Below, in pieces: positions 19,330 to 61,838 of a DNA stretch of 64,000 bases. The number at the start of each line of letters is the position of its first letter. Position 1 is the stretch's first letter. The notes below the pieces were generated by a model. It saw nothing but the letters and a program-made list of their open reading frames with translations. It searched no databases and was not told the DNA's origin. Made by a program: the position numbers and the translations under genes. Origin of the DNA: Bacilli bacterium (lineage in GTDB: Bacteria; Bacillota_I; Bacilli_A; RFN20; DUOF01); NCBI GenBank assembly GCA_045128835.1, contig JBGVRX010000029.1, forward strand, positions 51,583 through 115,582, in the 5' to 3' direction.

Positions 19330-20271
19330 TTACATTTTAAATACTTTATTATTGTTTTTTAATTCCTCTACAATACCTAAGATTATTTCAATTTCATCAT
19401 ATAATTTCTCAAACATTGATAAATCATTGTTTAACTTATAACCACTTAGTTCAAACATATTAACTTTTTCTGAACCTATATAAACATATCTATCAACAAA
19501 AACAATCTTAATTCCTTTTATCTTACTATCTAAAAGGCTTATTTTTTCCATCATATCTGGCGTTAATATATACCTCGCCTCAACTTGATTATTAGAAGTT
19601 ATTTTAAACTTTTTATTAAAGTTAATGTCCTCTAAAACTACCTTTTCAAACTCAACGCCTCTTCTTTTATACTTAGAATCAATGGCTAAGATACACTTGA
19701 ATTTTTTCTTAAATTTAACATAACCAAACATTCCCTTATAAACATCTGTTGTAGTTCTGTTGCCTTCTTCATCTATACTGAGATCATAAGCATTTACATC
19801 AGCAATTGCTAAATCTATTTTTGACTCACTACCATCATCGTTTGGGATATTAATACATAACAAGTCTCCAGAAGTAAAACAATCATATCTTTTTGAAAAT
19901 TGACTAGCCTCAAACTCTGAAGAACTAATCCACCCACTTTTATCAAAATAATATGAATTGTCTTTTAGTAAATAAGCAATTAATTTTTCTCTTACTTCTC
20001 CCCTGTAAAACTTAAGCATTTTATTTCTTTTAACTATCATAACAATAGATAAAATAATCATAACTACACCGATAATAAGTGCCTTGGGTAATCTCTTCAT
20101 ATAAACAATTAAAGGGATTTGAAAGAGCCCTTTCAAGCAAAGCAATGAACCTATAATTATTAATATAATAAAAGCTACCAAGCACCAAACCGATAAAAGT
20201 CTTCTATCACCTTTATCATTACTATCAATTGTCTTTTTTACATATTCCAAATATTCTTCTTTACTTACCAT
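19330..20271 (-). CDS. LemA-associated membrane protein, possibly DUF3137-like. Paralog A.
   Basis: 313 aa with N-terminal TM helices. Shares the MVSKEEY... start and ...NNNKVFKM end with the neighbouring paralog. Confidence 0.45.
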   Translation of the reverse strand: MVSKEEYLEYVKKTIDSNDKGDRRLLSVWCLVAFIILIIIGSLLCLKGLFQIPLIVYMKRLPKALIIGVVMIILSIVMIVKRNKMLKFYRGEVREKLIAYLLKDNSYYFDKSGWISSSEFEASQFSKRYDCFTSGDLLCINIPNDDGSESKIDLAIADVNAYDLSIDEEGNRTTTDVYKGMFGYVKFKKKFKCILAIDSKYKRRGVEFEKVVLEDINFNKKFKITSNNQVEARYILTPDMMEKISLLDSKIKGIKIVFVDRYVYIGSEKVNMFELSGYKLNNDLSMFEKLYDEIEIILGIVEELKNNNKVFKM

Positions 20272-20279
20272 GAAATCAC

Positions 20280-21215
20280 CTACATTTTAAATACTTTATT
20301 GTTATTCTTTATCTCATCAATTAATTTTAAAATAGCCTCGATTTCATCATAAAAAACATTAAATGCTTCCTCGATATTTGTGCCATCAATTCCCTCTAAT
20401 TCAAATAAATCTTTGTGAATTGCTCCAATATACATTCTATTATCTACTAAAGTTATTTTTGTCCCATTAAATCTTTTCTCTAGTGCTAAAAGATTTTCCA
20501 TCATTGTCGGAGTCAATATGTATCTAGATTCTATTTGATCATCACTAATAACCATAAACTTCTTGTTAAAAACAATATCCTCTAAAGTAACACCTTTTAA
20601 AGTTTTGCCACTTTTTTTATAATTTGAATCAATACACAAAATACATTTAAATTCAAAAGGAAATTCTACATAACCAAAAACACCTTTATATACCGTAACA
20701 GTTCTTGTATCTCCATCGCTATCTTCAACAGTTTTAGTAACATTTAAATCACATAAAGTTAGATCACATCCAGATTTACTTCCATCATCGTTAGGAATAC
20801 TAATAGTTAGTTTATCAGTACCATTATAATCTTCATAGTAGCCGCCAAATTGACTATCTTTAAATATTCTTTCACTTACTTTACCTTCAGGAATAAATGA
20901 ATATTCATAACCTTTAAGTAAATAGTCTAATATTAATCCCCTATAATTCTTTTTATAGTATCTTGCCGCAGATGTCGTATTTACAGTTCTAATCGCACCA
21001 ATAATAATAAATGTAATTCCCAAAACTGCAAAAAGAAAGGCTCCTGACCCTATCATAAATATTAAAAAAGTTAAGGTAAAAAGAACAACTCCTATTGTAA
21101 CTAAAGTTGAACTAGTACCTTTATAAGATTTAGTTAAATACTTTATTTCATGGCCTTTATTATCTTCTCCAACAAGTTCTTTAACGTATTGTTTATATTC
21201 CTCTTTACTTACCAT
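20280..21215 (-). CDS. LemA-associated membrane protein, possibly DUF3137-like. Paralog B.
   Basis: 311 aa, roughly 40-45% identical to 19330-20271 by eye. Identical N- and C-terminal peptides. Confidence 0.45.
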   Translation of the reverse strand: MVSKEEYKQYVKELVGEDNKGHEIKYLTKSYKGTSSTLVTIGVVLFTLTFLIFMIGSGAFLFAVLGITFIIIGAIRTVNTTSAARYYKKNYRGLILDYLLKGYEYSFIPEGKVSERIFKDSQFGGYYEDYNGTDKLTISIPNDDGSKSGCDLTLCDLNVTKTVEDSDGDTRTVTVYKGVFGYVEFPFEFKCILCIDSNYKKSGKTLKGVTLEDIVFNKKFMVISDDQIESRYILTPTMMENLLALEKRFNGTKITLVDNRMYIGAIHKDLFELEGIDGTNIEEAFNVFYDEIEAILKLIDEIKNNNKVFKM

Positions 21216-21225
21216 TTAAAATCAC

Positions 21226-21807
21226 CTATTCATCCATATTAATTTTAGAACTGAAATTTTCTCCTACATCTATTTTGAAAAGTTCCATTCTTTCAAAACC
21301 GAACATAGAAGCCATAATATTATTAGGGAATACTTCTATTAAAGTATTGTACTCATTAACATTACTATCATAAAATCTTCTAGAAGCTGCAATTTTGTCT
21401 TCTACTAAAATTAACTCTTCCATTAAACTCTTATATAAAGAATCAGCCTTCAATTCAGGATAATCTTCTGCAATTATTAAAACCTGTCTCATGTTAGGAA
21501 CAAGTTCATTAGCAAACTCTAACTTTTCCTTTTCATCTTCCGCATTAACGGCTTTTTTTCTTAATTCAATTAACTTAGAGAAAACTTCATTCTCATGTTT
21601 AGAATAAGCTTTTACAGTCTTTACTAAATTTGGAATTAAATCAAATCTTAATTTTAAATGTATATCAATCAATCTAAGACTTTCCTTAACTTTATTTCTA
21701 TATCTAACCATTTTGTTGTATTTAGAAATACTCACACAAATAGCAATAAATAAAACTACTAATAGAACAATTCCTCCTGCCATAGCAATACCTCCACTTC
21801 GTAACAA
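21226..21807 (-). CDS. lemA: LemA family protein.
   Basis: N-terminal TM helix followed by the conserved region ...KYNKMVRYRNKVKESLRLIDIHLKLRFDLIPNLV... typical of LemA. 193 aa. Confidence 0.7.
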   Translation of the reverse strand: MLRSGGIAMAGGIVLLVVLFIAICVSISKYNKMVRYRNKVKESLRLIDIHLKLRFDLIPNLVKTVKAYSKHENEVFSKLIELRKKAVNAEDEKEKLEFANELVPNMRQVLIIAEDYPELKADSLYKSLMEELILVEDKIAASRRFYDSNVNEYNTLIEVFPNNIMASMFGFERMELFKIDVGENFSSKINMDE

Positions 21808-21854: not shown

Positions 21855-23012
21855 CTATTTCTCTTCTCTTTTAAAATATTCATTTATTTTTTCTGCTTTG
21901 TCTAATCTTTCATACGGTAAATCCATATTTTCTTTACCAAAATGTCCGCCTCTAGCAAGTTCTCTATAATTTAAGTTAAGTAAATCAAGTGACTTAATTA
22001 TATTACCCGGCTTAAAATTAAAGACTTTTTTAATCATATTACATAATTCCAAGTCACTTACTTTGCCAGTCCCATAAGTGAACACATTAAATGATACCGG
22101 TTCTGCTAATCCTATCGCATAACCAACTTGCACTTCACACTCTTTAGCGTATCCACTTGCTACTATATTTTTTGCTACATATCGAGCATAATAAGCAGCA
22201 CTCCTATCAACTTTAGTAGGATCTTTACCACTAAATGCTCCTCCACCATGTCTTCCTCTACCACCATATGTATCAACAATTATTTTTCTTCCTGTAAGTC
22301 CAAAGTCTCCTCTAGGACCTCCAATAACAAATCTTCCTGATGGATTAACAATTAATCTATAATTATCTTTAATTAAGTCATATTCTTTAAGAACTTCTTC
22401 AACAATGTCTTCTTTAATATATTTTCTAAAAGATTCTTCATCAAAATCATCACTATGTTGTATAGAAACTAAAACTGTATCAACTCTGTTTTTGTCCCCA
22501 TATTCAATACTAACTTGAGATTTCATGTCTGGTCTAGCATATTTAAATTCACCAGATTTTCTTTTTTCTGTTGCTTTTAATAATATTTTATTAGCAATCT
22601 CTAATGTTAGAGGCATATAATTTTTAGTTTCATCACACGCATAACCAAAAATAATCCCTTGATCTCCTGCCCCAATTTCTTCTTTATTTACAGCATTAAA
22701 AATATCACTAGATTGTTCTTTAATTAAAATTTCATACTCTGCATTCTCGCTATCAAAACCATCATCATAACTATTATAACCAATCTCTTTTAAAACATTT
22801 TTAGCAACACTAGCATAATCAACGCTGCCCTTCATTGTAATTTCTCCACCAATTACAACTTTTCTTTCTCCAATCATAACTTCACATGCAACATGCGCAT
22901 TTTTGTCTTGTCTTAAACATTCAGTTAAAATTGCATCACTAATTTGATCGCAAACCTTATCTGGATGCCCCTCACTAACTGCTTCAGACGTAAAAATTTT
23001 ACCTTTTTCCAT
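21855..23012 (-). CDS. metK: S-adenosylmethionine synthetase.
   Basis: [27 protein letters not shown]...[19 protein letters not shown] motifs. The start is trimmed to MEKGK, which has an AGAGGGA RBS. Confidence 0.9.
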   Translation of the reverse strand: [385 protein letters not shown]

Positions 23013-23032
23013 AATTCTTTCCCTCTTTCTAG

Positions 23033-23179
23033 AAAAATAAAACTCCCTTATTAAAAGGAAGTTCACTTCTAGTATAACTCCCTCTTATTGTTCATATCTC
23101 TATGCTTGGGTTAGCACCTTAAATTTTAGGTTGCTCTTACGTTTAACGGTCCCTATACCTACGTAAATCTTAATAAGAG
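23033..23179 (-). promoter_or_regulatory. SAM-I (S-box) riboswitch with a terminator expression platform, upstream of metK.
   Basis: Minus-strand RNA CUCUUAU...UAGGGACCG...GCAACC...AAGGUGCUAA...AUAAGAG, containing the P1 helix, AGGGA box, GCAACC and GGUGCUAA elements. Followed by hairpin ACUUCCUU-UUAAU-AAGGGAGU and UUUAUUUUU. Confidence 0.7.
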
Positions 23180-23439: not shown

Positions 23440-23934
23440 TTATTTTTGTCCTTCTATCATTCTTTTTGGTAACTTTTGCAATGTAACACTAGCAATAAAA
23501 GCAGTTAACACACCACTAGCAACACTAGTTAACTCCAATATAACTAAATAGTTAATCATGTAAACACTATTATACAGTAACATAACCATTAAAACTTGTC
23601 CTAAAGCATGGAAAACCGCCCCAATAACAGACAATCCATAAATAGATGCCTTCTTAAACTTGTACACGATAAGAGTAAAAATAGTAGCTAATGCTGTACC
23701 ACTAAATCCAATAAAGAAAGCTGTGCCAAATCCCGTTCTTAGAAGTGCTACCATGAACACTTTTAAAATATTAAATAAAATATAATCTTTTTCATCATAT
23801 AAACACAAAACTACTAATCCAATACAATTCGCTAACCCAAGTTTTACTCCAGGTAAAGGCAATGGTAAAGGTACTAATGATTCTAAATAATTTATAATTA
23901 AAGCTACTGCTAAAAGAAGTGATATTTTTATCAT
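23440..23934 (-). CDS. Polytopic membrane protein, heptaprenyl-diphosphate-synthase-component-I-like (Gx transporter, EetB-like).
   Basis: Five or six TM helices. The N-terminus MIKISLLLAVALIINYLESLVPLPLP resembles PF07456-type proteins. The start is trimmed to the internal MIKIS. Confidence 0.4.
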   Translation of the reverse strand: MIKISLLLAVALIINYLESLVPLPLPLPGVKLGLANCIGLVVLCLYDEKDYILFNILKVFMVALLRTGFGTAFFIGFSGTALATIFTLIVYKFKKASIYGLSVIGAVFHALGQVLMVMLLYNSVYMINYLVILELTSVASGVLTAFIASVTLQKLPKRMIEGQK

Positions 23935-23959
23935 TTTATTTGTTCTACTATTCATAATA

Positions 23960-24358
23960 TCACATCTCCCAATCATTATCAGGAGTCGCTTGACCCATTA
24001 TCGTAATAATTACAGCATTTGGCAAACAAACTATTGGACGAGCAACACTATCTACCCAACCTTGCATAGAACAATAGTGAAGAGGAGATTCTTCTTTTTT
24101 AACTCTAACTTTTTTGTCTTTTATTTCTATTATCATCTCGCCTAATAAACTAGAATACTTATCAGGACTAAGGACAATCTCAGCATCTTCATTCATCTCC
24201 AATTTATATTTTTGTTTTCCTTCAATCGTTACAATAGCATATAAAACTTCACCTTTTGCCTTATTTGTAACGGCATTAGAAACAATGAATAAAACACAAA
24301 TAAGAATAAAGGAAATAATATAGACAATAATATCGTATTTATTATGCTTAAGCTCCAT
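23960..24358 (-). CDS. NusG domain II (DUF1312)-containing membrane protein, EetA-like.
   Basis: N-terminal TM helix followed by a beta-rich module ...AIVTIEGKQKYKLEMNEDAEIVLSP...EIKDKKVRV. Gene context is ApbE plus Rnf. Confidence 0.4.
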   Translation of the reverse strand: MELKHNKYDIIVYIISFILICVLFIVSNAVTNKAKGEVLYAIVTIEGKQKYKLEMNEDAEIVLSPDKYSSLLGEMIIEIKDKKVRVKKEESPLHYCSMQGWVDSVARPIVCLPNAVIITIMGQATPDNDWEM

Positions 24359-25574
24359 AATTAAATACCTCTAATTCAATATCATTAAATACTTGTAATA
24401 CTTGATCTTGCATAGTATCATTCACTAATAACTTAATACCATCATCTACCTTAACTTGTAACAATACATCTAAAGAAACATTGTTATTTTCCAACAATGT
24501 AAGATAAGTTTTAATCTCTTCAATGCTATTCATTGTCATAAGTGTTGTAGTTACAACATCCACCATCATAGCACTTTCTCCTATTACAGTAGCACCAACT
24601 AAATAAGTATTAGGATATCCACTAGTCGCATTAATAATGTGATGTCTTATAATACCATCACTATTTATATACCCTCTATGTTGAATACCTGAAGTAGATA
24701 TTGCATTATCACCTTCTAATTGAAGTTGTGCAGCTTGAGTAGATACAAAAGTATTACTATTCATACTATCATTAACTGCAATATTCCATACTCCACCATC
24801 TCTAGTAGGGTTATTTCCTCTAATTATAATACTAGATTGCCCAGCATCATAAATTGATGCACCTATATCTATAAATTCATCAATTTGTGACATTTTATCT
24901 AAGAAATAACTTTTAGCCATAGCACCTAATGTAATTGACGCTTGGCCAATACAACTGTTGAACGAATTAAAAGTAATTTTATTATTAACATCATCAATTA
25001 CAAGAATATTATCAATATCATTAACAGGAGCAACACACTTCATTGCTTCCTCTATTTCTTCACTTGTAGGATCAACATTTCTAATAGAAGTATCATAAGA
25101 AGTAAATCTTTCATCCCATACATCTACAATTGAACCAGATATAATATTAAATCTACCATTAGATAATTTAGTGTACTTTACGCCTTCTTTTAAAGCATCA
25201 ATAATTATCTCATCTACCTCAATAGAAGCACCACTACCATAACTATCATTAATAATTTTAATATTATTTATTAAATTACCCTTACTATCTTTGTAATAAT
25301 AGTTTCTATCCAATAAACTATGATACTTAAAAACTTCCTCATTTAATAAATCTTGTAATTCATTAACTTTTTGTTCGTTATATCCAACAAAACCAATATA
25401 AGTACCAAAAGGCTCAACTAATGTATAAGATGTGCCTTCTTTATTTAAATAGCCAATTATGTATGAAGAAAAAATAGATGTCTTAACTGGTTCTTCTTTT
25501 TTACACGAGCATCCACTAACTATACAAATTAATATAACTATTAAACTAAATATCTTCTTCATACATATCCTCAC
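24348..25574 (-). CDS. ApbE-family FAD:protein FMN transferase lipoprotein (FmnB-like).
   Basis: Lipoprotein signal MKKIFSLIVILICIVSGCSC. C-terminal GATVIGESAMMVDVVTTTLM resembles the ApbE ATViG..a..ADalsTal motif. Adjacent to the rnf operon. Confidence 0.5.
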   Translation of the reverse strand: MRICMKKIFSLIVILICIVSGCSCKKEEPVKTSIFSSYIIGYLNKEGTSYTLVEPFGTYIGFVGYNEQKVNELQDLLNEEVFKYHSLLDRNYYYKDSKGNLINNIKIINDSYGSGASIEVDEIIIDALKEGVKYTKLSNGRFNIISGSIVDVWDERFTSYDTSIRNVDPTSEEIEEAMKCVAPVNDIDNILVIDDVNNKITFNSFNSCIGQASITLGAMAKSYFLDKMSQIDEFIDIGASIYDAGQSSIIIRGNNPTRDGGVWNIAVNDSMNSNTFVSTQAAQLQLEGDNAISTSGIQHRGYINSDGIIRHHIINATSGYPNTYLVGATVIGESAMMVDVVTTTLMTMNSIEEIKTYLTLLENNNVSLDVLLQVKVDDGIKLLVNDTMQDQVLQVFNDIELEVFNYGA

Positions 25575-25577
25575 TAA

Positions 25578-25913
25578 CTACTTTAAATTTATTTCTTCAC
25601 CTTTATTATTTTTTATTGTTTTACAATATTCTTTTAAAACATCTGCATTAGCATCTGTAATAACTTTACATGCCTTTGCTTCATTAACTTCACCATCTAA
25701 AATTGCTTTTGCTAATGCTTCACAACCAACATATCCACACGCTCCACAATTATAACTAGGCAAAATAAACTCTATTTTACTAACTCTATCATCATCTTCA
25801 ACATGAAAGTATTTATTTGCAAGGGCTAATCCTACTCCTAAAACTACAGCAATAACAAGAATAACTCCTCCTGCAATTAATACATTAACAAAATCCATAT
25901 TATTCCTCCTCAC
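25578..25913 (-). CDS. rnfB: RnfB-like protein. Short form with an N-terminal TM helix and an Fe-S cluster domain only.
   Basis: MDFVNVLIAGGVILVIAVVLG...NCGACGYVGCEALAKAI matches the RnfB N-terminal Fe-S domain. No 4Fe-4S ferredoxin domains follow. Confidence 0.55.
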   Translation of the reverse strand: MRRNNMDFVNVLIAGGVILVIAVVLGVGLALANKYFHVEDDDRVSKIEFILPSYNCGACGYVGCEALAKAILDGEVNEAKACKVITDANADVLKEYCKTIKNNKGEEINLK

Positions 25914-26055
25914 TTCTATGAATGCACCCTAAAAAGTTACATCCATGACAAGTTTTTTTATCACATTTAACTTCAAATTTCTTATTTAATTTAAACATAG
26001 CTAAATATATTAAACTAAAAATCAAAACAACTACGACCGGTAACAAATATTTCAT
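25900..26055 (-). CDS. Small membrane protein (about 51 aa) with a CxxxxCxxCxxxxC motif, between rnfA and rnfB.
   Basis: MKYLLPVVVVLIFSLIYLAMFKL (TM) followed by CDKKTCHGCNFLGC. The start abuts the rnfA stop and the end overlaps the rnfB start. Confidence 0.3.
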   Translation of the reverse strand: MKYLLPVVVVLIFSLIYLAMFKLNKKFEVKCDKKTCHGCNFLGCIHRSEEE

Positions 26056-26057
26056 TA

Positions 26058-26633
26058 TTATACAATTCCTGCAAAACCAGTAAAGGCCAAAGCCATAAAT
26101 GCCGCACAAATTAAAGCAATTGGAACACCTTTAAATGCCTTAGGAACTGGTGCTTTGTCTAATTGCTCTCTTATCGCAGAGAAAATGAAGATAACCATTA
26201 AATAACCAATTGATATTGAAAGTGAATAAACACACATTTCTAAGAAATTATAACCAAATGATATGTTATTTAAAGTAACCCCTAAAACAATACAGTTTGT
26301 TGTTATTAATGGTAAATAAACTCCAAATTCTTCATATAAATGAGGGAAATACTTCTTTATCAATAATTCTGCAAATTGAACTAATGAAGCAATAACTAAA
26401 ATAAATACAACATTATTCATATAAGCTATTTCTAATGGTTCTAACACTAAATGATATAACCCATATGTCATAATAGATGACAAGAATACTACACAAATAA
26501 CAGCAATTCCCATTCCAAAAGCTTGAGATCTTTTTTTACTTACTCCAAGAAAAGGACAGATACCTAAGAATTGTCCTAAAACAACATTACTAACTAAAAT
26601 AGCACCTATCGCCAAACTAATATAACTAAGCAT
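26058..26633 (-). CDS. rnfA: Rnf electron transport complex subunit A.
   Basis: 191-aa polytopic membrane protein at the RnfA position in a C-D-G-E-A-B operon. Confidence 0.85.
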   Translation of the reverse strand: MLSYISLAIGAILVSNVVLGQFLGICPFLGVSKKRSQAFGMGIAVICVVFLSSIMTYGLYHLVLEPLEIAYMNNVVFILVIASLVQFAELLIKKYFPHLYEEFGVYLPLITTNCIVLGVTLNNISFGYNFLEMCVYSLSISIGYLMVIFIFSAIREQLDKAPVPKAFKGVPIALICAAFMALAFTGFAGIV

Positions 26634-27327
26634 TTTCCTTTTCCTCCTTTACAGTTTCTACAATTTGTTTTTCTTCTTTTTTCTTATTTGCAATTTTATC
26701 AGAAACAAAATTATATAATGCCATCAATAATCCTAAAACAAGAAATGCTCCCATTCCAGTAGAGAATAAAGAAATTTGAATTGTTGAGCTATATTCCTCT
26801 AATCCAATTAAATTCATTAAATTAAAGATTTCGTTATTGTTAAACAGATTGTGTAAAACAATGTTTCCTGTTCCTAAAAATTCTCTAATAAACGCTATAG
26901 AAATTAATGCAACAGCAAATCCTAATCCTGTAGCTATTGCATCTAGAAAACTCTTTAGAGGATCATTTTTACTAGCAAAAGCTTCTGCTCTACCAAGAAC
27001 AATACAGTTAACTGTAATAAGAGGTAAAAAGACACCTAAACCCTTATATAATTCATAAGTAAATGCTTCAGCTAACATTGTTACACAAGTAACAAATGTT
27101 GCAATAATTATTATGAAAATTGGAAGTCTTATTTCAGATGGTATTATTTTTCTTAGCAAAGAAACAACAACATTTGAAAAAATTAAAACGATTGTTACTG
27201 CAATTGACATACCTATAGCATTATCTATAGAAGTTGTAATTGCAAGAGCTGAACATAAACCCAGCATCAAAACTAGAACAGGATTTTTTGTAAGGATTCC
27301 TTCCTTAAAAATTGTACTATTTTTCAT
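26626..27327 (-). CDS. rnfE: Rnf electron transport complex subunit E.
   Basis: 233-aa polytopic membrane protein paralogous to RnfA, at the RnfE position. Confidence 0.85.
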   Translation of the reverse strand: MKNSTIFKEGILTKNPVLVLMLGLCSALAITTSIDNAIGMSIAVTIVLIFSNVVVSLLRKIIPSEIRLPIFIIIIATFVTCVTMLAEAFTYELYKGLGVFLPLITVNCIVLGRAEAFASKNDPLKSFLDAIATGLGFAVALISIAFIREFLGTGNIVLHNLFNNNEIFNLMNLIGLEEYSSTIQISLFSTGMGAFLVLGLLMALYNFVSDKIANKKKEEKQIVETVKEEKENA

Positions 27328-27854
27328 TATTTAACCCTCCCATAATGTGCAATTGCTGCATTTATTGCTGCAACAACATTATCTCCAGTATCAGATGCTC
27401 CAGTAACTACATCACTATCTGCTAAACTTGTCTTACCTTTTATTTTATTTAAATAACTGTTTGATGCATATAAGTTTGCATAACTATCACCTGCACTAGT
27501 AATTTTAAGAGTATATATCTTTCCATTTTGAAGAGCTACAATTGCAGCGCTATCATCACTACCAACACCATCTTTAATAGTTAATTTATAAACGTAATAT
27601 GTTTTACCTTCACTTTTAACCTCATAGGCATTGTTAACACCACTATCTAATTCAGCAGCATTTAAACTTGTGCTAATATTTTCTATTTTAGCATCTTCAC
27701 CAAACACTTCTAAAATAACAGCATTTTCTCTTTTGTTGGCATTTTTTTCAATAATTGGAGAAGTTACATTGTAAACAACTGCTAAAAGAAGACCTGCAAT
27801 AACAGCGATAATCCCTAAAATAAGAGGATATCTAATTAGCTTATTCTCTTTCAT
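27327..27854 (-). CDS. rnfG: Rnf electron transport complex subunit G (FMN-binding).
   Basis: N-terminal TM helix plus an FMN_bind-like domain with a VTGASDTG motif. 175 aa at the RnfG position. Confidence 0.7.
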   Translation of the reverse strand: MKENKLIRYPLILGIIAVIAGLLLAVVYNVTSPIIEKNANKRENAVILEVFGEDAKIENISTSLNAAELDSGVNNAYEVKSEGKTYYVYKLTIKDGVGSDDSAAIVALQNGKIYTLKITSAGDSYANLYASNSYLNKIKGKTSLADSDVVTGASDTGDNVVAAINAAIAHYGRVK

Positions 27855-29341
27855 TATTTAGCACCTCCTCTTACTGTTTCAACAACAGCTTTTAAGTTAC
27901 CTATAAATGCACTTGTAGTATATGTAGCGCTTGTTTCTACATCAATTCCTACATTAGCATCTGTTGTATTTTCACAAACTTTATTTTCACATTTGAAGTT
28001 ATCTAAATCACTAAATTTAATTTGTTTATTGTCTCCAATAACAGCACCATAAATTGAACTACTTTCTAAACTTGAATAATACTCTCCTGGATTTTTCTCT
28101 AATAGTTCTACTGCAACAATTGTTTCAGTTGATGCATTTACTGTAACTTTAAACTTTAATGTCCCTTTAAATCCATCACTACTAACTGTGTACTCACTAT
28201 CACTTAATTTTTCAACAGTATAATCTTTTAACCAAGGATTTTTTTCTTCTTTTTCTAATGGATATAAAGCACTATATCCAATATTCATACCTATTGCTCC
28301 AACAAAGAATGCTGCTACAACAGCCCATTTAGAAGCGACTTTATTAACAGTTGTTCCTTTTATACAACTATCAATTAAAGGATTTAACATATTCATTAAA
28401 GCAACTGAGAACATAACTCCTTCTGGGTAATCAGAGTTTATTCTAATAAACATTGTTAAAGCAGCTGCACCTATACCAAAAATTATTTTACCATTCATTG
28501 ATTTTGGACTAGTCACAGGATCTGTAATCATGAATACTGAAGCAAACATGATTCCTCCTGTTGCTAGTTGAAGTAATGTATAAGATAATACGTTATCTAC
28601 TCCATAGAACAATCCTAAAGCAAAGCTAATACCTGTAATTGTTAATAAATAACTTAACATTAATCTATAACTAATAATTCCTCTGATAATTAAATAAATT
28701 GCTGCAACAACTAATAGAATTGTAAATGTTTCTCCCATTGCTCCATTATAATTACCAAATAAAATTGTTTTAAAATCATAACCTTCTGGAATAGCCCCTT
28801 CCGCCCAGTTAATGCTACTAGTAACTGTTGAACTAGTAACAAAATCATAAGTAGCAGAATTAGTTTCATTTGCTACAATTCCATAATTTAAACTTGATCC
28901 AAATGCTAATCCAACAAAAATTCTACCGATTATTGCTGGGTTAAATATATTATAACCAAATCCACCAAATAAATATTTTCCTAATAATGTTGCTACTATT
29001 GAACCAATAATAACAGCATAATAACTAACACCTACTGGTAAACATAAAGCAAATATAATCGCCGTAACATAACTATAACTAGTTGAAACGGCATTACCTA
29101 TCTCTTTTATTTTTCTTTTTCCTTTAAGCAAGGCTATAATAACATCAACTGCTAATGTTGTACCTAAAGATATTAAAACAACAAGTATTGCTCTTAATCC
29201 AACTAAAAAGTTAAATCTAATCGAATAAGAAACAACTGAAACCAACCACACAACAGCAAGTACCGCAAACAATTCTAACATTATCCCTGTTGTGCTTCTT
29301 TTACTCCTTAAAAAAGGTCCTTTTGCTAACGAAAATTTCAT
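27854..29341 (-). CDS. rnfD: Rnf electron transport complex subunit D, with a fused C-terminal FMN-binding-like extension.
   Basis: N-terminus MKFSLAKGPFLRSKRSTTGIMLEL typical of the RnfD/NqrB family. About 150 extra C-terminal residues contain the flavinylation-like motif ETSATYTTS. Confidence 0.8.
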   Translation of the reverse strand: MKFSLAKGPFLRSKRSTTGIMLELFAVLAVVWLVSVVSYSIRFNFLVGLRAILVVLISLGTTLAVDVIIALLKGKRKIKEIGNAVSTSYSYVTAIIFALCLPVGVSYYAVIIGSIVATLLGKYLFGGFGYNIFNPAIIGRIFVGLAFGSSLNYGIVANETNSATYDFVTSSTVTSSINWAEGAIPEGYDFKTILFGNYNGAMGETFTILLVVAAIYLIIRGIISYRLMLSYLLTITGISFALGLFYGVDNVLSYTLLQLATGGIMFASVFMITDPVTSPKSMNGKIIFGIGAAALTMFIRINSDYPEGVMFSVALMNMLNPLIDSCIKGTTVNKVASKWAVVAAFFVGAIGMNIGYSALYPLEKEEKNPWLKDYTVEKLSDSEYTVSSDGFKGTLKFKVTVNASTETIVAVELLEKNPGEYYSSLESSSIYGAVIGDNKQIKFSDLDNFKCENKVCENTTDANVGIDVETSATYTTSAFIGNLKAVVETVRGGAK

Positions 29342-29344
29342 TTA

Positions 29345-30649
29345 CTACTTCCCTCCTTTATTAGCACTTACTCTTAAATATAGTTTTGCTTTTTTTATCG
29401 CATCCGTTAATTCAATATGTGATGGACAAACAAATGAACACATACCACATTCTACACATTTACTACAATCAAACGCTTGAAGTTCTTTTGCATCTTTATC
29501 ATCAAAAGCATTCTTAATTTGAATTGGTTGTAACCCTGCTGGACAATTTTCAATACATTTGCCACATTTTAAGCAAGGCAATGTTTGATAAACTTTTTTC
29601 TTCATTATAGTTAAACCACCATTGTTTGTTTGAATTGCAAATTCATCTGTTATATTAGCTTTTGAAGTCATTGGTCCTCCTGCTAAAACACAAACTTCTT
29701 CAGCCAAGTATCCGCACTTTTCTAAAATATTTTTAGCTAAAGTTCCAACTGGAACAACCACATTTGTAGGATTAACAGCATCACCACTAATAGTTAACAA
29801 TCTTTCGCTAATTACATCACCATCTATTAGTGCTTTAGCAACACTTATAACAGTTTGAGCATTATTTACAACAACGCCAATTTCACTAGGAAGTTTATCA
29901 TAAGTCTTTTTGTATACAGTTTTAACTAATAGTTTTTCCCATCCCATTGGGTATCTATCTTTAACTTCTACAATTCTAACTCCTTGATAGTTTGATAACT
30001 CCTTTTCAATAATTTCCTTTAAATCCTTCTTATTGTTTTTAAAAGCAATAATAGCTTCACTTGCTCCACTAAGTTTCATTAAAATAGAAATTCCTTCTAA
30101 TAAATAGTTAACATTACTTTTCATTGTAATATAGTCAGTAGTTAAATAAGGTTCACATTCTACTCCATTTACTAACAAACTGTTAATTTGCGCATCTGAA
30201 GAATACTTAACATATGTTGGGAACCCAGCACCACCTAAGCCTACGATTCCGGCTTCTTTAATAGCATTTAAAATTGTTTCTCTATCACAGTTTTTATAAT
30301 CAATTGTTTTTAATAGTTCTTTAGTGTATTTAAAGTCATTCTCAATTACTAAGTGATCACAACTTTTTCCTAATGCACTATTGTACATGCTTTTAATACC
30401 TTTCACTTTCCCACTCACACTTGAATAAAGAGGAACATAGAAATCATTTCTTTTACAAAGCACAGTTCCTACCTTAACTGTATCTTTTTCTTTTACTAAA
30501 ATTTCCATTTCCTTTCCGTTAGGTGCTAATACAGGAAAATAAACTTCACCACAAATTTCTTTTTCTTGTTTGAAGTCTACAACTTCCTTATGAGCGGTTA
30601 ATTCTTTGTGTCCATTAATGTGTCTTTTACCAATTGAACTAATAATCAT
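29345..30649 (-). CDS. rnfC: Rnf electron transport complex subunit C.
   Basis: GGAGFPTYVK NADH-binding motif. Two 4Fe-4S motifs, CLKCGKCIENCP and CSKCVECGMCSFVCP. Confidence 0.85.
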   Translation of the reverse strand: MIISSIGKRHINGHKELTAHKEVVDFKQEKEICGEVYFPVLAPNGKEMEILVKEKDTVKVGTVLCKRNDFYVPLYSSVSGKVKGIKSMYNSALGKSCDHLVIENDFKYTKELLKTIDYKNCDRETILNAIKEAGIVGLGGAGFPTYVKYSSDAQINSLLVNGVECEPYLTTDYITMKSNVNYLLEGISILMKLSGASEAIIAFKNNKKDLKEIIEKELSNYQGVRIVEVKDRYPMGWEKLLVKTVYKKTYDKLPSEIGVVVNNAQTVISVAKALIDGDVISERLLTISGDAVNPTNVVVPVGTLAKNILEKCGYLAEEVCVLAGGPMTSKANITDEFAIQTNNGGLTIMKKKVYQTLPCLKCGKCIENCPAGLQPIQIKNAFDDKDAKELQAFDCSKCVECGMCSFVCPSHIELTDAIKKAKLYLRVSANKGGK

Positions 30650-31614
30650 TTCTTTCCTTCCTCCTTCTTGTAAACACTGTCAAATACTTTCATTTTATCA
30701 CCTTCAACATAACCATCATATATAAATGATTTAGTAAACTCTTCTAAATTTATCGAATTACCTTTATATCTTTCATTTACTAAATTAATCCATTCATTTG
30801 CTTCTAACTTTGCTTCATCTAATAGTTCATCAAAATTCTTATCAAATTCAACTTCTGTCGCAGGATCTTTCCATTTATTCTTCTTTATATTTAAATAATC
30901 TACAGTTTTATCATCCTTAACAGTTAAAGGATGCATCATTGTGTTAAATGGTGTCTTTTTAAACAAAGCATTTACAATACCTTTCTTAACACCCTTTTTA
31001 CTATACAATAGTTTTTCTATCAAAAGCATATCATCATAAGAATCTTCAAAACTATCATCATCTATGAAAGTTTCATTTAGTATTTCTTTAGCCATTTTCT
31101 CATACATTTCACTTACTTCTTCAATTTTATCTTCATCGCATTTTATAGACTCTATTGACGTTGTTTTGTATTGGCTATATCTGCCATTCATTAGCAAAAC
31201 ATCTAAATGAGTTTCAAACAATGTATGATTAGCAAAATATTTCTTTTTTTGTTTTGGATCATCACTAAATCCTGTCTTATAAAAAACATAAGGATGTATC
31301 TTTCTATCCAAAACATAATGAAGACCTGCTCCTAAAATATAAGCATATAAAATATCCTTTTCTTCTTTTTCATCTGAGTATTTGAAGAAATATTCAAAAA
31401 CTTTACCTGGATCCATCTTATGAAGTTTATTGCCAAACTTACGTATTTCTTTAGAATTTTTAGAACCAGTAATAAAAGGTACTATACCACAAAAGAAAAA
31501 TGGGTCTGGTCCTTGCGCTCCAAGCAAATAAATATCCTCGTTACCTTTTAAAAATTGTATATTATTATTTAAAACTTCTTTGTTGAAACCATAATGAGTT
31601 AATACAGATGGCAT
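30646..31614 (-). CDS. Hypothetical protein, possibly zinc-dependent phospholipase-C-like. Co-transcribed upstream of rnfC.
   Basis: MPSVLTHYGF...LGAQGPDPFFF near the N-terminus. The 3' end overlaps the rnfC start (ATGA). The start is trimmed because the longer ORF would overlap the divergent gene. Confidence 0.3.
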   Translation of the reverse strand: MPSVLTHYGFNKEVLNNNIQFLKGNEDIYLLGAQGPDPFFFCGIVPFITGSKNSKEIRKFGNKLHKMDPGKVFEYFFKYSDEKEEKDILYAYILGAGLHYVLDRKIHPYVFYKTGFSDDPKQKKKYFANHTLFETHLDVLLMNGRYSQYKTTSIESIKCDEDKIEEVSEMYEKMAKEILNETFIDDDSFEDSYDDMLLIEKLLYSKKGVKKGIVNALFKKTPFNTMMHPLTVKDDKTVDYLNIKKNKWKDPATEVEFDKNFDELLDEAKLEANEWINLVNERYKGNSINLEEFTKSFIYDGYVEGDKMKVFDSVYKKEEGKK

Positions 31615-31744
31615 TGCTATACTACCTCCCTTAGTTATCATTATAACTAAATAAAAGTAACTTGTGAAATTTTTGCAATCTTTTTTGATTATTTTATTCT
31701 TCTTATCTATATAGATAATATTAAAAGAAAGGAGATTTACTTTT

Positions 31745-52372: not shown

Positions 52373-52565
52373 CTCCTCTTTCTTATTGTTTTATAATAAG
52401 CGTAATTACCTTTTCAATAAAAAACCCCTAAACCAAATTTTGGCGCAGGGGAAATAAATCAAGTTTATTTTCACCTCGGCAACCTTATTAAGTCCCTTGA
52501 CCGTTGCTGTCTTTGGTAATTAAGCATCATTATTTTAATAGTTTAATATGTATTTGTCAACTAAA
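52373..52565 (-). promoter_or_regulatory. Ribosomal protein L10 leader (autoregulatory attenuator) upstream of rplJ.
   Basis: An untranslated stretch of about 190 nt. Contains the hairpin CCCCUGCGCCAAAAUUUGGUUUAGGGG followed by UUUUUUAUU in minus RNA (plus strand ~52419-52452). Confidence 0.5.
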
Positions 52566-57752: not shown

Positions 57753-58232
57753 ATGATTTGCGAGAAAAATATTAAAGAAATTAAACAAATTATTGAAAAC
57801 AGAAAAAACATAGAAACTCCCCTTATGATGATTCTAAGCGATATTCAAAACAAATATGGATATATAGATTTAGAAGTTCAACAAATAGTAGCAGACGAAT
57901 TAAATTTGCCTGTAAGTGAAGTTTATGGCGTTGTTACATTCTATTCATATTTTTCATTACAACCTAAAGGTAAATATGTAATAGGAATTTGTATGGGTAC
58001 TGCATGTTATGTGAAAGGAAGTCAATCTTTGTTAGATGCTTTCTGTAATAGACTAGGAATCAAGGAAGGACAAACAACAGAAGACGGCTTATTTACTATT
58101 GATGTATTAAGATGTATTGGAGCTTGTGGATTAGCCCCTGTAGTTAGCGTTAACGGTAAAATTTATCCGCATGTTGCTATAAAAGACGTAGACAAAATTA
58201 TTGCAGATTGTAAGAAAGGAGAAATCAACTAA
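57753..58232 (+). CDS. NuoE-like [2Fe-2S] thioredoxin-like ferredoxin subunit of a bifurcating [FeFe]-hydrogenase (HydC/HndA).
   Basis: Cys motifs ...GICMGTACYVKG...CIGACGLAPV. The start is trimmed to the ATG after the GAGGTG RBS. Confidence 0.8.
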   Translation: MICEKNIKEIKQIIENRKNIETPLMMILSDIQNKYGYIDLEVQQIVADELNLPVSEVYGVVTFYSYFSLQPKGKYVIGICMGTACYVKGSQSLLDAFCNRLGIKEGQTTEDGLFTIDVLRCIGACGLAPVVSVNGKIYPHVAIKDVDKIIADCKKGEIN

Positions 58233-60103
58233 TGGGCAAATTAAATAATCTCCAAGATTTAAAAAACAAAATTGAAGAATGTAAAAACAAACCAAGCGTT
58301 ACAGAAAGAATATTAACATTTTGTTGCTCTAGTGGTTGCGTTGCAAATAAATCACTAGATGTTAAAGCCATTTTCGATAATTTGATTAACGAAAATAATT
58401 TATCAGATAAAATACAAACAAAAACAGTTGGATGTTTTGGATTCTGTTCACAAGGACCTTTCGTTAAGGTTTACCCTGACAACGTTACTTACAAACTTGT
58501 AAAAGAAAACGATGTAAAAGAAATATTTGAAACTCATTTATTAAACAACACAATCGTTGAAAGACTAGTATTTAAAAACAACGAAGGAAAAGTAGAAACA
58601 AATCACAACAATCTAGAATTCTTCCAAAAGCAAAAAAGAATTGCTTTACACGGATGTGGAGAAATCAACCCTAATGATATTGAAGACGCATTCAAAGTTG
58701 GTGGTTATAGTGCATTCGCTAGATGTTTAGAAAAACTATCACCACTTCAAGTTATTGAAGAAGTTAAAGATAGCGGATTAAGAGGAAGAGGTGGAGGAGG
58801 CTTCCCTACTGGAAGAAAATGGGAAGCAGCTTACAATCAACAAAGCGAAATCAAATACGTAATTTGTAACGGAGATGAAGGTGACCCAGGAGCATTCATG
58901 GATCGTTCTATTCTTGAAAGTAATCCTCATTCAGTTGTAGAAGGAATGTTAATTGCAGGATACGCTATTGGTGCTTGTAAAGGATTCATTTATGTAAGAG
59001 CTGAATACCCTTTGGCGGTTGAAAGTTTCTCTAAAGCAGTAGAAAGTGCTAGAGAATATGGAATTCTTGGAAATAATATATTAGGAACCAACTTCTGTTT
59101 TGATATTGAAGTAAGATTAGGCGCTGGAGCTTTTGTGTGTGGCGAAGAAACAGCACTTATCGGTTCAATTGAAGGAAAAAGAGGAATGCCAACAGCTAAA
59201 CCTCCTTATCCTGCTCAAAAAGGATTGTGGGGAAAACCTACAATAATTAATAACGTCGAAACATTTGCTAACTTGCCATTCATTTTAAAAGATGGTGGAG
59301 TTGCTAAATTCAAAGAAATAGGAACAGAAAAATCAAAAGGTACAAAAGTATTTGCTCTTGCTGGTAAAGTAAAAAACATCGGACTAGTAGAAGTTCCAAT
59401 GGGTACAACATTAAGAGAACTTATTTACGATATAGGTGGAGGAATTGCTAATGATAAAGAATTCAAAGCAATTCAAACTGGCGGTCCTAGCGGAGGATGC
59501 TTAACTAAAGATGATTTAGATACACCAATCGACTTTGATAACTTATTAGCTAAAGGTTCAATGATGGGTAGTGGTGGAGCTATCGTCATGGATGAAGACA
59601 ACTGTATGATAGATGTCGCTAAGTTCTATTTGAACTTCATTTGTGAAGAATCTTGTGGTAAATGTTCTCCTTGTAGAATAGGAACAACAAGAATGCTAGA
59701 AATTTTAGAAAAGATTAGCGATGGTAAAGGCGAAGAAAAAGATTTAGAAGAATTAGAAAGCCTAGCAAACTATATAAAGAAAGCTTCATTATGTGGATTA
59801 GGCCAAAGTGCACCTAACCCAGTTCTATCTACATTATCTAAATTTAGAGATGAATATTTAGAGCACATTAGAGAACACAAATGTCGCGCTAAAGTATGTA
59901 AAGGAATGCTAGGATATTCAATTGATCCAGAAAAATGTAAAAAGTGCGGATTATGTTCTCGTTCTTGTCCAGTTGGAGCAATAAGTGGCGTTCCTGGAAA
60001 AGAGCCATTCAAAATCGATCGTAATAAATGTATAAAATGTGGACTATGTATGAACAGTTGTCCATTTAAATCAATAGACAAAACAAGTGGAGGTGAAAAT
60101 TAA
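58232..60103 (+). CDS. NuoF-like NADH-binding flavoprotein subunit of the [FeFe]-hydrogenase (HydB/HndC).
   Basis: FMN/NADH motifs GRGGGGFPTGRKWE. A SLBB/4Fe-4S region. C-terminal 2x[4Fe-4S] CKKCGLCSRSCP...CIKCGLCMNSCP. Confidence 0.85.
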   Translation: MGKLNNLQDLKNKIEECKNKPSVTERILTFCCSSGCVANKSLDVKAIFDNLINENNLSDKIQTKTVGCFGFCSQGPFVKVYPDNVTYKLVKENDVKEIFETHLLNNTIVERLVFKNNEGKVETNHNNLEFFQKQKRIALHGCGEINPNDIEDAFKVGGYSAFARCLEKLSPLQVIEEVKDSGLRGRGGGGFPTGRKWEAAYNQQSEIKYVICNGDEGDPGAFMDRSILESNPHSVVEGMLIAGYAIGACKGFIYVRAEYPLAVESFSKAVESAREYGILGNNILGTNFCFDIEVRLGAGAFVCGEETALIGSIEGKRGMPTAKPPYPAQKGLWGKPTIINNVETFANLPFILKDGGVAKFKEIGTEKSKGTKVFALAGKVKNIGLVEVPMGTTLRELIYDIGGGIANDKEFKAIQTGGPSGGCLTKDDLDTPIDFDNLLAKGSMMGSGGAIVMDEDNCMIDVAKFYLNFICEESCGKCSPCRIGTTRMLEILEKISDGKGEEKDLEELESLANYIKKASLCGLGQSAPNPVLSTLSKFRDEYLEHIREHKCRAKVCKGMLGYSIDPEKCKKCGLCSRSCPVGAISGVPGKEPFKIDRNKCIKCGLCMNSCPFKSIDKTSGGEN

Positions 60104-60104
60104 G

Positions 60105-61838
60105 ATGGTTAACATTAAAATTGATAATAAAGAATATTCTTTTGAAGAAGGACTAACAATCTTAGAAGCATGTAGAAAAGCAAATATCGATATACCTACA
60201 CTTTGTTATTACAAAGATTTAGTAGAATCTGGAAACTGCCGTGTTTGTCTTGTGGAAGTAAAAGGAAATAGAAATTTCGTAACTGCTTGCAACTATAAGA
60301 TTTACGAAGGAATGAAAGTTTTAACTAATACATTAGATGTAATTGAAGCAAGAAAGAAATCGCTAGAATTAATAATTTCTAACCATTCTATGGAATGTTT
60401 AAATTGTAGTGCAAACAATAACTGTGAATTACAATCCCTAACAAAAAAATTAAATGTTCAAGAAAGATATTATGGAAAGAAAACAGAAACTTTCAAAGAT
60501 GAATTATCAGGGATAATTTGTAGAGATACATCAAAATGTATTTTGTGTGGTAGATGTATTGAAATGTGTAAAAAAACACAAGGAATTGGTATTTTAAACT
60601 TTGAAAACAGAGGGTTAAATACAATTCTTGCTCCTGTTGCTAATAAATCATTTAAAGATGTACCTTGTACATATTGTGGTCAATGCACTAAAGTTTGCCC
60701 TACTGGAGCATTAACTGTGAAAGAAAATATTAGAGACTTATTATTGGCTATTAAAGAAGGAAAACATATTGTTGCCCAAACAGCTCCAGCAGTAAGAGCG
60801 GGCCTTGGCGAAGAATTTGGTTACCCTATCGGAACTAACGTTGAAGGAAAAATGGTAGCTGCTTTAAGAAAAATCGGATGTCATAAAGTATATGACGTTA
60901 ACTTTGGTGCGGATTTAACTATCATGGAAGAATCAAATGAATTTATTGAAAGATTTACAAAAAAAGAAAATTTACCATTGATAACTTCTTGTTGTCCAGG
61001 ATGGGTTAGATATGCAGAAACTTATTACCCAGAATTATTAAACCACTTATCAAGTTGCAAATCTCCACACATGATGGAAGGCGCTTTAATTAAATCTTAT
61101 TATGCTGAAAAGAATAACATTGACCCTAAAGACATAGTAGTCGTTTCAATTATGCCTTGTAGTGCTAAAAAAGAAGAAAAAGACCGTAATGATGATGTAG
61201 ATATCGTACTAACTACAGTTGAATTAGCAGATGTTATTAAGTTGTTCGGAATTTCTTTCACTAACTTAGAAGATGAAAAATTCGATACAGACTTATTAGG
61301 CGACTTCTCTGGTGCTGCAGTTATATTTGGAACAAGCGGAGGAGTTATGGAAGCAGCTTTAAGAACTGCATATCACACTCTAACAAACAACGAATATGAT
61401 TCAATTAAATTTGAAACAGTTCGTGGAATGAACGGTATTAAAGATGCTAGTTTAGAAATAAACGGAAACAAAATAAATGTCGCAGTAGTTCACTCTTTAT
61501 CTAACGCTAAAGTATTACTAGAGCAAATTAAAGAAGGAACTTGTAAATACGACTTTATTGAAGTAATGGCCTGCCCTCTTGGATGTATAAATGGTGCAGG
61601 GCAACCTAAAATAACTTCAAATCATTTAGATATAACTCAAAAAGATAATGTATTATTCAATACATATAAAAGAGCTAACGCTTTATATAAAGAGGACGAT
61701 AACTTACCAATAAGACAATCTCATAACAATCCTCAAATACAACAATTATATAAAGATTATTTAGAAAAGCCTGGTTCTCATAAGGCACATAAGTTATTAC
61801 ACACAACTTACAGCGAAAAAGAAAGAAAAGTAAAATAA
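60105..61838 (+). CDS. hydA: [FeFe]-hydrogenase catalytic subunit.
   Basis: N-terminal 2Fe-2S/4Fe-4S domains. H-cluster motifs TSCCPGW, MPCSAKKEE and EVMACPLGCINGAGQP. The start is the ATG after the GGAGGTG RBS. Confidence 0.9.
   Translation: MVNIKIDNKEYSFEEGLTILEACRKANIDIPTLCYYKDLVESGNCRVCLVEVKGNRNFVTACNYKIYEGMKVLTNTLDVIEARKKSLELIISNHSMECLNCSANNNCELQSLTKKLNVQERYYGKKTETFKDELSGIICRDTSKCILCGRCIEMCKKTQGIGILNFENRGLNTILAPVANKSFKDVPCTYCGQCTKVCPTGALTVKENIRDLLLAIKEGKHIVAQTAPAVRAGLGEEFGYPIGTNVEGKMVAALRKIGCHKVYDVNFGADLTIMEESNEFIERFTKKENLPLITSCCPGWVRYAETYYPELLNHLSSCKSPHMMEGALIKSYYAEKNNIDPKDIVVVSIMPCSAKKEEKDRNDDVDIVLTTVELADVIKLFGISFTNLEDEKFDTDLLGDFSGAAVIFGTSGGVMEAALRTAYHTLTNNEYDSIKFETVRGMNGIKDASLEINGNKINVAVVHSLSNAKVLLEQIKEGTCKYDFIEVMACPLGCINGAGQPKITSNHLDITQKDNVLFNTYKRANALYKEDDNLPIRQSHNNPQIQQLYKDYLEKPGSHKAHKLLHTTYSEKERKVK

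Follow-up and report, generated by a model that had tools for sequence, protein, structure and literature searches.

We examined the rnf operon on a 64,000-nucleotide (nt) stretch of DNA from a Bacilli bacterium (GTDB lineage RFN20; DUOF01; assembly GCA_045128835.1, contig JBGVRX010000029.1, positions 51,583 to 115,582 of the forward strand), hereafter the window. The operon differs from characterized ones in two linked places. Its RnfB is reduced to a membrane anchor and one small iron-sulfur (Fe-S) domain, and a 51-amino acid (aa) open reading frame (ORF), the mini-gene, lies between rnfA and rnfB. Comparative sequence data indicate that the mini-gene is a real, conserved gene confined to the lineage with the short RnfB, and the two together look like an undescribed variant of the well-studied Rnf complex. 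No paper returned by a full-text literature search describes a shortened RnfB or an additional gene in the rnfA-rnfB interval. Our tentative view is that the encoded mini-protein is an Fe-S micro-subunit, present in stoichiometric amounts, and that it would make up the ferredoxin-side entry of Rnf together with the one-cluster RnfB.

A minimal RnfB

The sole Pfam match of RnfB was PF04060 'FeS' (residues 51-82, E=2.5e-10, 40.3 bits vs a cut-off of 23). Pfam detected no Fer4 family and no ferredoxin-like domain in the protein, which terminates 29 residues past the last Cys of the FeS domain. Matches to the NCBIfam rnfB models were confined to the first ~75-85 model positions, and TIGR01944 scored 56.7 bits, under its cut-off of 68.7. 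Residues 6-78, transmembrane (TM) region included, aligned in a phmmer search of the PDB with residues 5-76 of solved RnfB chains, namely those of A. woodii (9eri_B, 333 aa), C. tetanomorphum (7zc6_B, 274 aa), and A. vinelandii (8ahx_B, 174 aa). A 2025 review (PMC12174285) divides RnfB into a TM helix, a flexible small domain with one cluster, and a ferredoxin-accepting C-terminal domain with 2-7 clusters; the window RnfB has only the first two of these parts. The domain matches and the PDB alignment thus fully bear out the initial annotation of this DNA, which had described a minimal RnfB without ferredoxin domains.

The length of 111 aa given in that annotation holds for the ORF read from a GTG at 25913 (25578-25913), but the product is most likely 106 aa (25578-25898). 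Homologs, in 73 clusters, are nearly all 105-106 aa long and begin with MDF(V/I)N, and a strong Shine-Dalgarno sequence, GAGGAGGA, lies 6 nt 5' of the ATG at 25898, so we place the start at this ATG rather than at the GTG.

C51, C54, C59, and C77 of the FeS domain were invariant among the homologs. The AlphaFold2 (AF2) model of RnfB was confident, with a predicted local distance difference test (pLDDT) score of 90.8, and consisted of a TM helix (residues 2-31, pLDDT ~90) and a small helical domain. In Foldseek, the modeled soluble part superposed on the [4Fe-4S] N-domain of the corrinoid iron-sulfur protein (CFeSP; 2ycl_A, 4c1n_G, 9fzy_F) with a root-mean-square deviation of 1.3-1.6 Å over ~52 residues at ~30% identity. 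The same search did not retrieve the RnfB chains solved by cryo-electron microscopy (cryo-EM), as would be expected if those maps resolve the small RnfB domain poorly.

The last ~25 residues of the minimal RnfB, after the FeS domain, were conserved in many members (loci L001-L008, L013, L025, L037, L040, and L065 in our numbering) and were modeled by AF2 as a helix and a short strand pair. The tail reads E-Y-C-K-T-I-K-N-N-K-G-E-x-I-x-L-K in the window's clade and Y-L-K/N-x-x-P-G-P-D-G-x-x-h-x-h in distant relatives. Because of this conserved tail, the protein does not appear to be simply truncated.

A conserved small gene between rnfA and rnfB

The mini-ORF starts at the ATG at 26055 on the minus strand, stops at 25900-25902, and encodes MKYLLPVVVVLIFSLIYLAMFKLNKKFEVKCDKKTCHGCNFLGCIHRSEEE. 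A small ORF with one TM helix and four cysteines in the rnfA-rnfB junction, as initially annotated, is therefore present; the end coordinate then given for it, 26109, is the TTG start of a mechanically called 69-aa ORF that overlaps rnfA. The gene is tightly packed. Its ATG lies 2 nt past the rnfA stop (TAA-TA-ATG), a single nucleotide separates its own stop from the rnfB start (TAA-T-ATG), and the rnfB Shine-Dalgarno sequence falls within its last codons, where it encodes the C-terminal EEE. A consensus scan found no terminator in the rnfA-rnfB interval.

Both the short RnfB and the mini-ORF were conserved in relatives. Every close relative examined (RnfB 71-89% identical) had an ORF of 51-54 aa in the rnfA-rnfB slot, and syntenic ORFs, 51-83 aa overall, also occurred at distant loci with RnfA only 42-60% identical. 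Three additional contexts found via the protein family had the order rnfA-X-rnfB(short) with overlaps of 1-4 nt. Among 80 loci fetched from reference genomes with an RnfB profile, 25 had an RnfB of 92-119 aa, and 21 of these carried a small ORF between rnfA and rnfB that encoded one hydrophobic helix followed by P-x-G-C-E-x4-8-C-x2-C-x4-5-C. The mini-gene was found in none of the examined loci with an RnfB of 232-356 aa. There, the gap between rnfA and rnfB is -8 to +64 nt, and the slot is not a non-coding version of the mini-ORF, as the initial annotation had allowed it might be, since these loci have no spacer at all. A family hidden Markov model (HMM) run over six-frame ORFs of all loci hit 27 fetched loci and the window, always in the rnfA-rnfB gap.

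The ratio of nonsynonymous to synonymous substitution rates (dN/dS) of the mini-ORF was 0.11 for the window against its closest relative. More distant pairs, with saturated dS, gave 0.13-0.68, and every computable pair stayed <1. For comparison, values were 0.10-0.20 for rnfB and 0.03-0.13 for rnfA. By this measure of sequence evolution the mini-ORF is under purifying selection. Conservation of the ORF, its position, and its Cys motif in relatives whose synonymous sites are saturated argues for more than a chance ORF.

The family is easily overlooked. A word-indexed protein search with the single 51-aa sequence gave no match, and the family was recovered through synteny and then by profile. 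The profile search, which covered 1.84 billion representatives of clusters at 50% identity, returned 433 proteins at E<=1e-3, including 134 at E<=1e-10. The best 150 of the 433 matches were stand-alone proteins of 51-101 aa (the family range is also given as 49-101 aa). Members that have a name are called 'hypothetical protein', and none is assigned to a Pfam or NCBIfam family. The exact mini-protein sequence was not found in a collection of 15 billion proteins although the window RnfA occurs there on 7 contigs, which indicates that the mini-gene was never called in this organism. In relatives it was called by some annotation pipelines and missed by others. The initial suggestion of an unannotated accessory subunit is supported to the extent that the junction holds a real, conserved gene restricted to the short-RnfB lineage.

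Cysteine motif and topology

The four cysteines of the mini-protein (C31, C36, C39, and C44) are spaced C-x4-C-x2-C-x4-C, and the family motif is C-x4-10-C-x2-C-x4-5-C. The core CxxCx4-5C was present in 196 of 200 family representatives; the other four appear to be truncated. In 165 of the 196 core-bearing representatives (~84%), a further Cys lies 4-10 residues N-terminal to it. Loss of the cysteines among relatives, raised at the outset as a possible disproof, was not observed, as three are invariant and the fourth is retained in about 84-90%. A conserved pattern, Y-x3-Y-x-L-N-x-K/R-T-P-x-P-E-G, lies at and just past the cytoplasmic end of the helix.

AF2 modeled a helix over residues 4-26 of the mini-protein (pLDDT >90), with low confidence in the Cys region, such that the model is uninformative past the helix. 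Low-confidence Cys regions are usual in AF2 models of cofactor-dependent folds. The Lys and Arg residues are clustered after the helix, and from this distribution we infer an N-out/C-in orientation that would put the Cys motif and the RnfB domain together on the cytoplasmic side.

The mini-protein and 22 homologs had no significant Pfam or NCBIfam match; FeoB_associated, Lepto_8Cys, and similar Pfam families appeared only below threshold. The protein also lacks a CxxCxxCxxxCP motif, and the initial alternative of an rnfB remnant, read as a leftover of the missing ferredoxin domains, is therefore not supported. A profile comparison of the mini family with the short RnfB N-terminus (hhalign) gave a probability of 63-69% and a pairwise E of about 5e-5 over 15-36 collinear columns. 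The similarity runs from the helix end through CxxCx4C, and the fourth domain Cys further downstream is absent in the mini-protein. PF04060 itself matched one family member, at 14.3 bits vs a cut-off of 23. These similarities would fit a mini-protein that is at most a very diverged paralog of the RnfB N-terminus, derived from a partial rnfB duplication.

Distribution and lineage

In a neighbor-joining tree of RnfA+RnfE, all short-RnfB loci fell in a single clade. On this phylogeny, the pairing of short RnfB and mini-gene therefore represents one ancient event that has since been maintained, and not repeated convergence. Most contigs in the clade are labeled as Erysipelotrichaceae, Solobacterium, Bulleidia, Acholeplasma(taceae), Xianfuyuplasma (Izemoplasma-type), or unclassified Bacilli. 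The published description of Peloplasma aerotolerans lists rnf accessions with two gaps, one of which falls between rnfA and rnfB and is consistent with an unmentioned gene at that position.

Several loci in the clade had features of their own. L007 and L050 are labeled 'Candidatus Methanomethylophilaceae archaeon' and 'Sodaliphilus sp.' but carry a Bacilli-type rnf with a short RnfB and a mini-gene, and their contigs are probably mis-binned in those metagenome-assembled genomes. The RnfA of L009 and L012 has a ~38-aa Cys-free C-terminal extension. In L095 (764-1012), L040, L045, and L050, which belong to one short-RnfB subclade, the usual rnfC position holds no full-length gene. Ahead of rnfD lies a gene for an 82-aa 2x[4Fe-4S] ferredoxin-like protein, and an RnfC query in tblastn aligned over only ~77 aa there. 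Judging from these sequences, both peripheral modules of Rnf would be minimal in this subclade, without an NADH-binding domain in the cluster.

Proposed role and alternative explanations

In the lineage-specific Rnf encoded by rnfC-D-G-E-A-mini-B, RnfB is cut down to a membrane anchor and one small [4Fe-4S] domain, the domain that shuttles electrons to the membrane [2Fe-2S] of RnfA/E in solved Rnf complexes. The mini-protein would be a seventh, stoichiometric accessory subunit. It would be placed next to RnfB, on the side of RnfA/E that faces the cytoplasm, and would carry an Fe-S cluster; the most likely candidate is a labile [4Fe-4S] coordinated by the three invariant Cys and one further ligand. 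It may thereby form or stabilize the site of electron exchange between ferredoxin and the RnfB cluster, a task performed elsewhere by the C-terminal polyferredoxin module. The remaining complex looks functional, since RnfC is full length, RnfA and RnfE retain their membrane Cys pairs, and the RnfB model is confident. A subunit is favored because the mini-gene is embedded and translationally packed between structural genes, while the maturation gene apbE stands at the operon end. Metal binding is plausible by analogy with the RseC-like motif discussed below. We infer the topology, cluster binding, complex membership, and electron-entry role of the mini-protein, and the general reading as an Fe-S micro-subunit on the ferredoxin side, though the best of those we considered, is held with less than even confidence. 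Its more specific form, in which the mini-protein is an unrecognized seventh redox subunit, a single-helix Fe-S carrier of RseC type that with the one-cluster RnfB makes up the whole ferredoxin-side entry, is rather doubtful.

Several observations weigh against a redox subunit. Four loci (L009, L012, L023, and L051) have a short RnfB of 93-104 aa and no mini-gene within +/-6 kb, so that a minimal RnfB can persist without it, at least within that distance, and the operons of L023 and L051 nest inside the short-RnfB clade. The invariant cysteines of the mini family number only three. Homology to RseC could not be demonstrated, with PF04246 at E=4.4 in 1 of 22 members and an hhalign probability of 2%. 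We had considered the co-occurrence of mini-gene and short RnfB as statistical evidence of coupling and dropped it, as the tree shows a single origin. A 135-aa fusion protein (P0120, L088:5177-5584), in which the helix and Cys motif of the mini-protein are joined to the RnfB FeS domain and the RnfB helix is deleted, would speak for a subunit if it is a genuine Rosetta-stone case. It comes, however, from a single 6.3-kb metagenomic contig whose rnfE also looks disrupted and may be an artifact of assembly or a pseudogene, and we counted it as weak support.

The strongest competitor, although unlikely, is an NqrM-like maturation or assembly factor that holds Fe or an Fe-S cluster transiently and delivers it to the [2Fe-2S] of RnfA/E or to RnfB. 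The mini-protein has the architecture described for NqrM (PMC12174285, PMC6209661), the operon also holds the maturation gene apbE, the Cys region evolves faster than rnfA or rnfB, and some short-RnfB operons do without the gene, all as might be expected of such a factor. Against this, none of the 22 mini-family members searched matched the NqrM Pfam family even at E<=10, and nqrM and apbE lie downstream of the structural genes whereas the mini-gene is wedged between rnfA and rnfB with coupled codons. Moreover, Rnf complexes with a long RnfB need no such factor to assemble this [2Fe-2S] center, and the restriction to the short-RnfB lineage thus goes unexplained. We consider it more improbable still that the mini-protein is a non-redox structural micro-subunit, with its helix packed on RnfB, RnfA, or RnfE and its cysteines forming a Zn site or small knuckle that positions the mobile RnfB domain. 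Single-helix subunits are common in membrane complexes, the conserved aromatic and polar residues at the cytoplasmic helix end would suit such a role, and four Cys within 14-20 residues also fit a single-metal site. Yet ~16% of members do without the first Cys, which suits an Fe-S site with three Cys, of the RseC kind, better than a Zn site with four, and the cluster-binding PF04060 motif has the same CxxCx4C spacing.

The remaining two explanations deny the mini-protein a function of its own. If the mini-ORF were a partial copy of the 5' end of rnfB in decay, kept mainly for translational coupling of rnfA and rnfB, this would account for the 36 collinear columns shared with the short RnfB (hhalign probability 69%), the weak PF04060 match in one member, and the C-terminal EEE encoded by the rnfB Shine-Dalgarno sequence. 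We regard it as very improbable: the reading frame has remained intact, its Cys triad invariant and its juxtamembrane motif preserved, across loci whose RnfA is 42-60% identical; dN/dS is well under 1; and an ORF serving coupling alone would not conserve a helix and a Cys motif. That the mini-ORF arose by chance in a non-coding spacer might be argued from its missing annotation in this organism and from the failure of Pfam, NCBIfam, and the word-indexed search to match it, but the comparative data (synteny, HMM scan, dN/dS, 433 relatives, and Cys statistics) effectively refute this idea, and we give it next to no weight.

Operon structure and genomic neighborhood

The minus-strand rnf operon is complete, with the order rnfC-D-G-E-A-[mini]-B-apbE (Table 1). 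The best promoter-like site lies 5' of the Zn_dep_PLPC-like gene and a terminator-like hairpin follows the last gene, both as consensus matches only. The operon probably begins with the Zn_dep_PLPC-like gene. In relatives L081, L084, and L085, the slot beside rnfC is likewise held by a Zn-dependent phospholipase C-like gene.

Table 1 Features of the rnf operon and of its surroundings in the window.
Feature	Coordinates	Strand	Description
HydABC-like gene set	57753-61838	+	three genes
Ribosomal protein L10 leader	52410-52534	-
Promoter-like site	31668-31640		5' of first gene; consensus match only
Zn_dep_PLPC-like gene	30646-31641	-	PF00882, E=2.5e-8; stop overlaps rnfC start
rnfC	29345-30649	-	434 aa, full length; RnfC_N, Complex1_51K, 2x[4Fe-4S] (Pfam, NCBIfam)
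rnfD	27854-29341	-	495 aa; fused C-terminal FMN_bind, aa 390-487 (Pfam)
FMN_bind domain of RnfD	27881-28174	-	flavinylation-like motif
rnfG	27327-27854	-	175 aa; weak FMN_bind match (Pfam, NCBIfam)
rnfE	26626-27327	-	233 aa (Pfam, NCBIfam)
rnfA	26058-26633	-	191 aa; PF02508, TIGR01943
mini-ORF	25900-26055	-	51 aa; single-pass membrane protein, unnamed family
Minimal rnfB	25578-25898	-	106 aa; TM helix, PF04060, short conserved C-terminal tail
Conserved tail of RnfB	25578-25655	-	last ~25 residues
apbE flavin transferase	24348-25574	-	lipoprotein-like N-terminus; directly 3' of rnfB (Pfam; synteny)
NusG_II-domain gene	23960-24358	-	near operon end (Pfam; synteny)
Hpre_diP_synt_I/ECF-S-like membrane protein gene	23440-23976	-	operon end (Pfam; synteny)
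Terminator-like hairpin	23455-23432		after last gene; consensus match only
S-adenosylmethionine (SAM) riboswitch	23082-23179	-	upstream of metK
metK	21855-23066		directly downstream of rnf operon
LemA-family gene and two DUF3137-like genes	19330-21807	-	tandem DUF3137-like paralogs, 311 and 313 aa

The FMN_bind domain fused to RnfD has a flavinylation-like D-x-x-T-S-A-T motif, so that RnfG is not the sole extracytoplasmic flavin domain. In relatives, RnfD is likewise fused to FMN_bind, or RnfG-like proteins have grown to 350-486 aa. Published work suggests that a multi-flavinylated Rnf may supply extracytosolic acceptors (PMC8238504).

Downstream of the operon, metK and its upstream SAM riboswitch are followed by a LemA-family gene and the two tandem DUF3137-like paralogs, a trio also found downstream of metK in relatives L081 and L085. 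Elsewhere, the window contains a ribosomal protein L10 leader and three genes resembling an NADH-/ferredoxin-linked [FeFe]-hydrogenase of HydABC type, namely a NuoE-like 2Fe-2S thioredoxin-like protein, a NuoF-like subunit with Fer4 domains, and HydA. The presence of this hydrogenase set points to a ferredoxin-based metabolism and makes ferredoxin a likely redox partner.

Implications

Rnf is a central energy-conserving enzyme of anaerobes, and structural models assign ferredoxin docking to the polyferredoxin domain of RnfB. The short-RnfB lineage, many of whose members come from gut or rumen, offers a natural minimal system for electron entry into Rnf. If the mini-protein is a seventh redox subunit, the large polyferredoxin module of canonical RnfB would be dispensable, and RseC would be better seen as an Fe-S adaptor at the interface of RnfB with RnfA/E than as a transcriptional regulator. 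For annotation, the locus flags a gene that pipelines miss or call 'hypothetical', together with a short RnfB that falls under the NCBIfam cut-off.

Comparison with known systems

Canonical RnfB (TIGR01944/K03616) shares with the window protein the N-terminal TM helix, the PF04060 domain with four Cys, and a gene clustered on one strand with rnfA, C, D, E, and G in rnfCDGEAB-type order, A then B. In contrast, characterized RnfB proteins all carry a C-terminal module of 2-7 [4Fe-4S] clusters regarded as the ferredoxin acceptor (PMC12174285), and even the smallest solved RnfB, at 174 aa, is longer than the 106 aa found here. The PF04060 N-domain of CFeSP (2ycl, 4c1n, 9fzy) is the best structural match to the soluble part of the minimal RnfB, but CFeSP is a soluble 440-aa protein of the acetyl-CoA pathway, and its kinship with RnfB is at the domain level only.

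Two families of small Cys-containing membrane proteins invite comparison with the mini-protein. NqrM (DUF539), whose gene belongs to the nqr operon, acts in Fe-S maturation (PMC12174285, PMC6209661). Like the mini-protein, it is a small Cys-containing membrane protein from an Rnf/Nqr-type operon with apbE, and it is thought to serve a membrane Fe-S center. The NqrM gene lies downstream of the nqr structural genes whereas the mini-gene is internal, and the association is with Nqr rather than Rnf; the NqrM Pfam family had no match among the 22 mini-family members searched. The FeoB-associated Cys-rich membrane proteins (PF12669) are likewise ~50 aa long with an N-terminal TM helix and a Cys-rich C-terminus, but only a few mini-family members matched PF12669, at 16-17 bits vs a cut-off of 27, the window protein did not match it, and there is no feoB in the neighborhood. 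The rnfX and rnfY genes of Methanosarcina acetivorans, which we also considered, are unrelated to the mini-protein but set a precedent for lineage-specific accessory rnf genes.

The most informative resemblance appears to be to RseC/MucC (PF04246), at the level of the motif only. The last three Cys of RseC are conserved and the first is not, and its cytoplasmic motif binds an O2-sensitive [4Fe-4S] cluster; RseC also interacts with RsxB and RsxD (PMC11729352) and is needed for Rnf-dependent autotrophy in C. ljungdahlii (PMC9124969). The E. coli RseC sequence contains C-x5-C-x2-C-x5-C, which hhalign sets in register with the mini-protein motif, albeit at 2% probability. With the predicted topology of the mini-protein, both would have a membrane-anchored cytoplasmic Cys motif; the spacing and the 3+1 conservation agree, and each has a genetic and functional tie to Rnf/Rsx. 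They differ in that RseC is ~140-160 aa, with an N-terminal soluble Cys domain followed by two TM helices, whereas a single TM helix precedes the motif in the mini-protein. Gene position differs as well, since rseC is found upstream of the rnf operon or elsewhere outside it, and not in the rnfA-rnfB slot. A search of the window and all fetched loci turned up no RseC-like ORF. The mini-protein is a simpler relative, by motif, of RseC.

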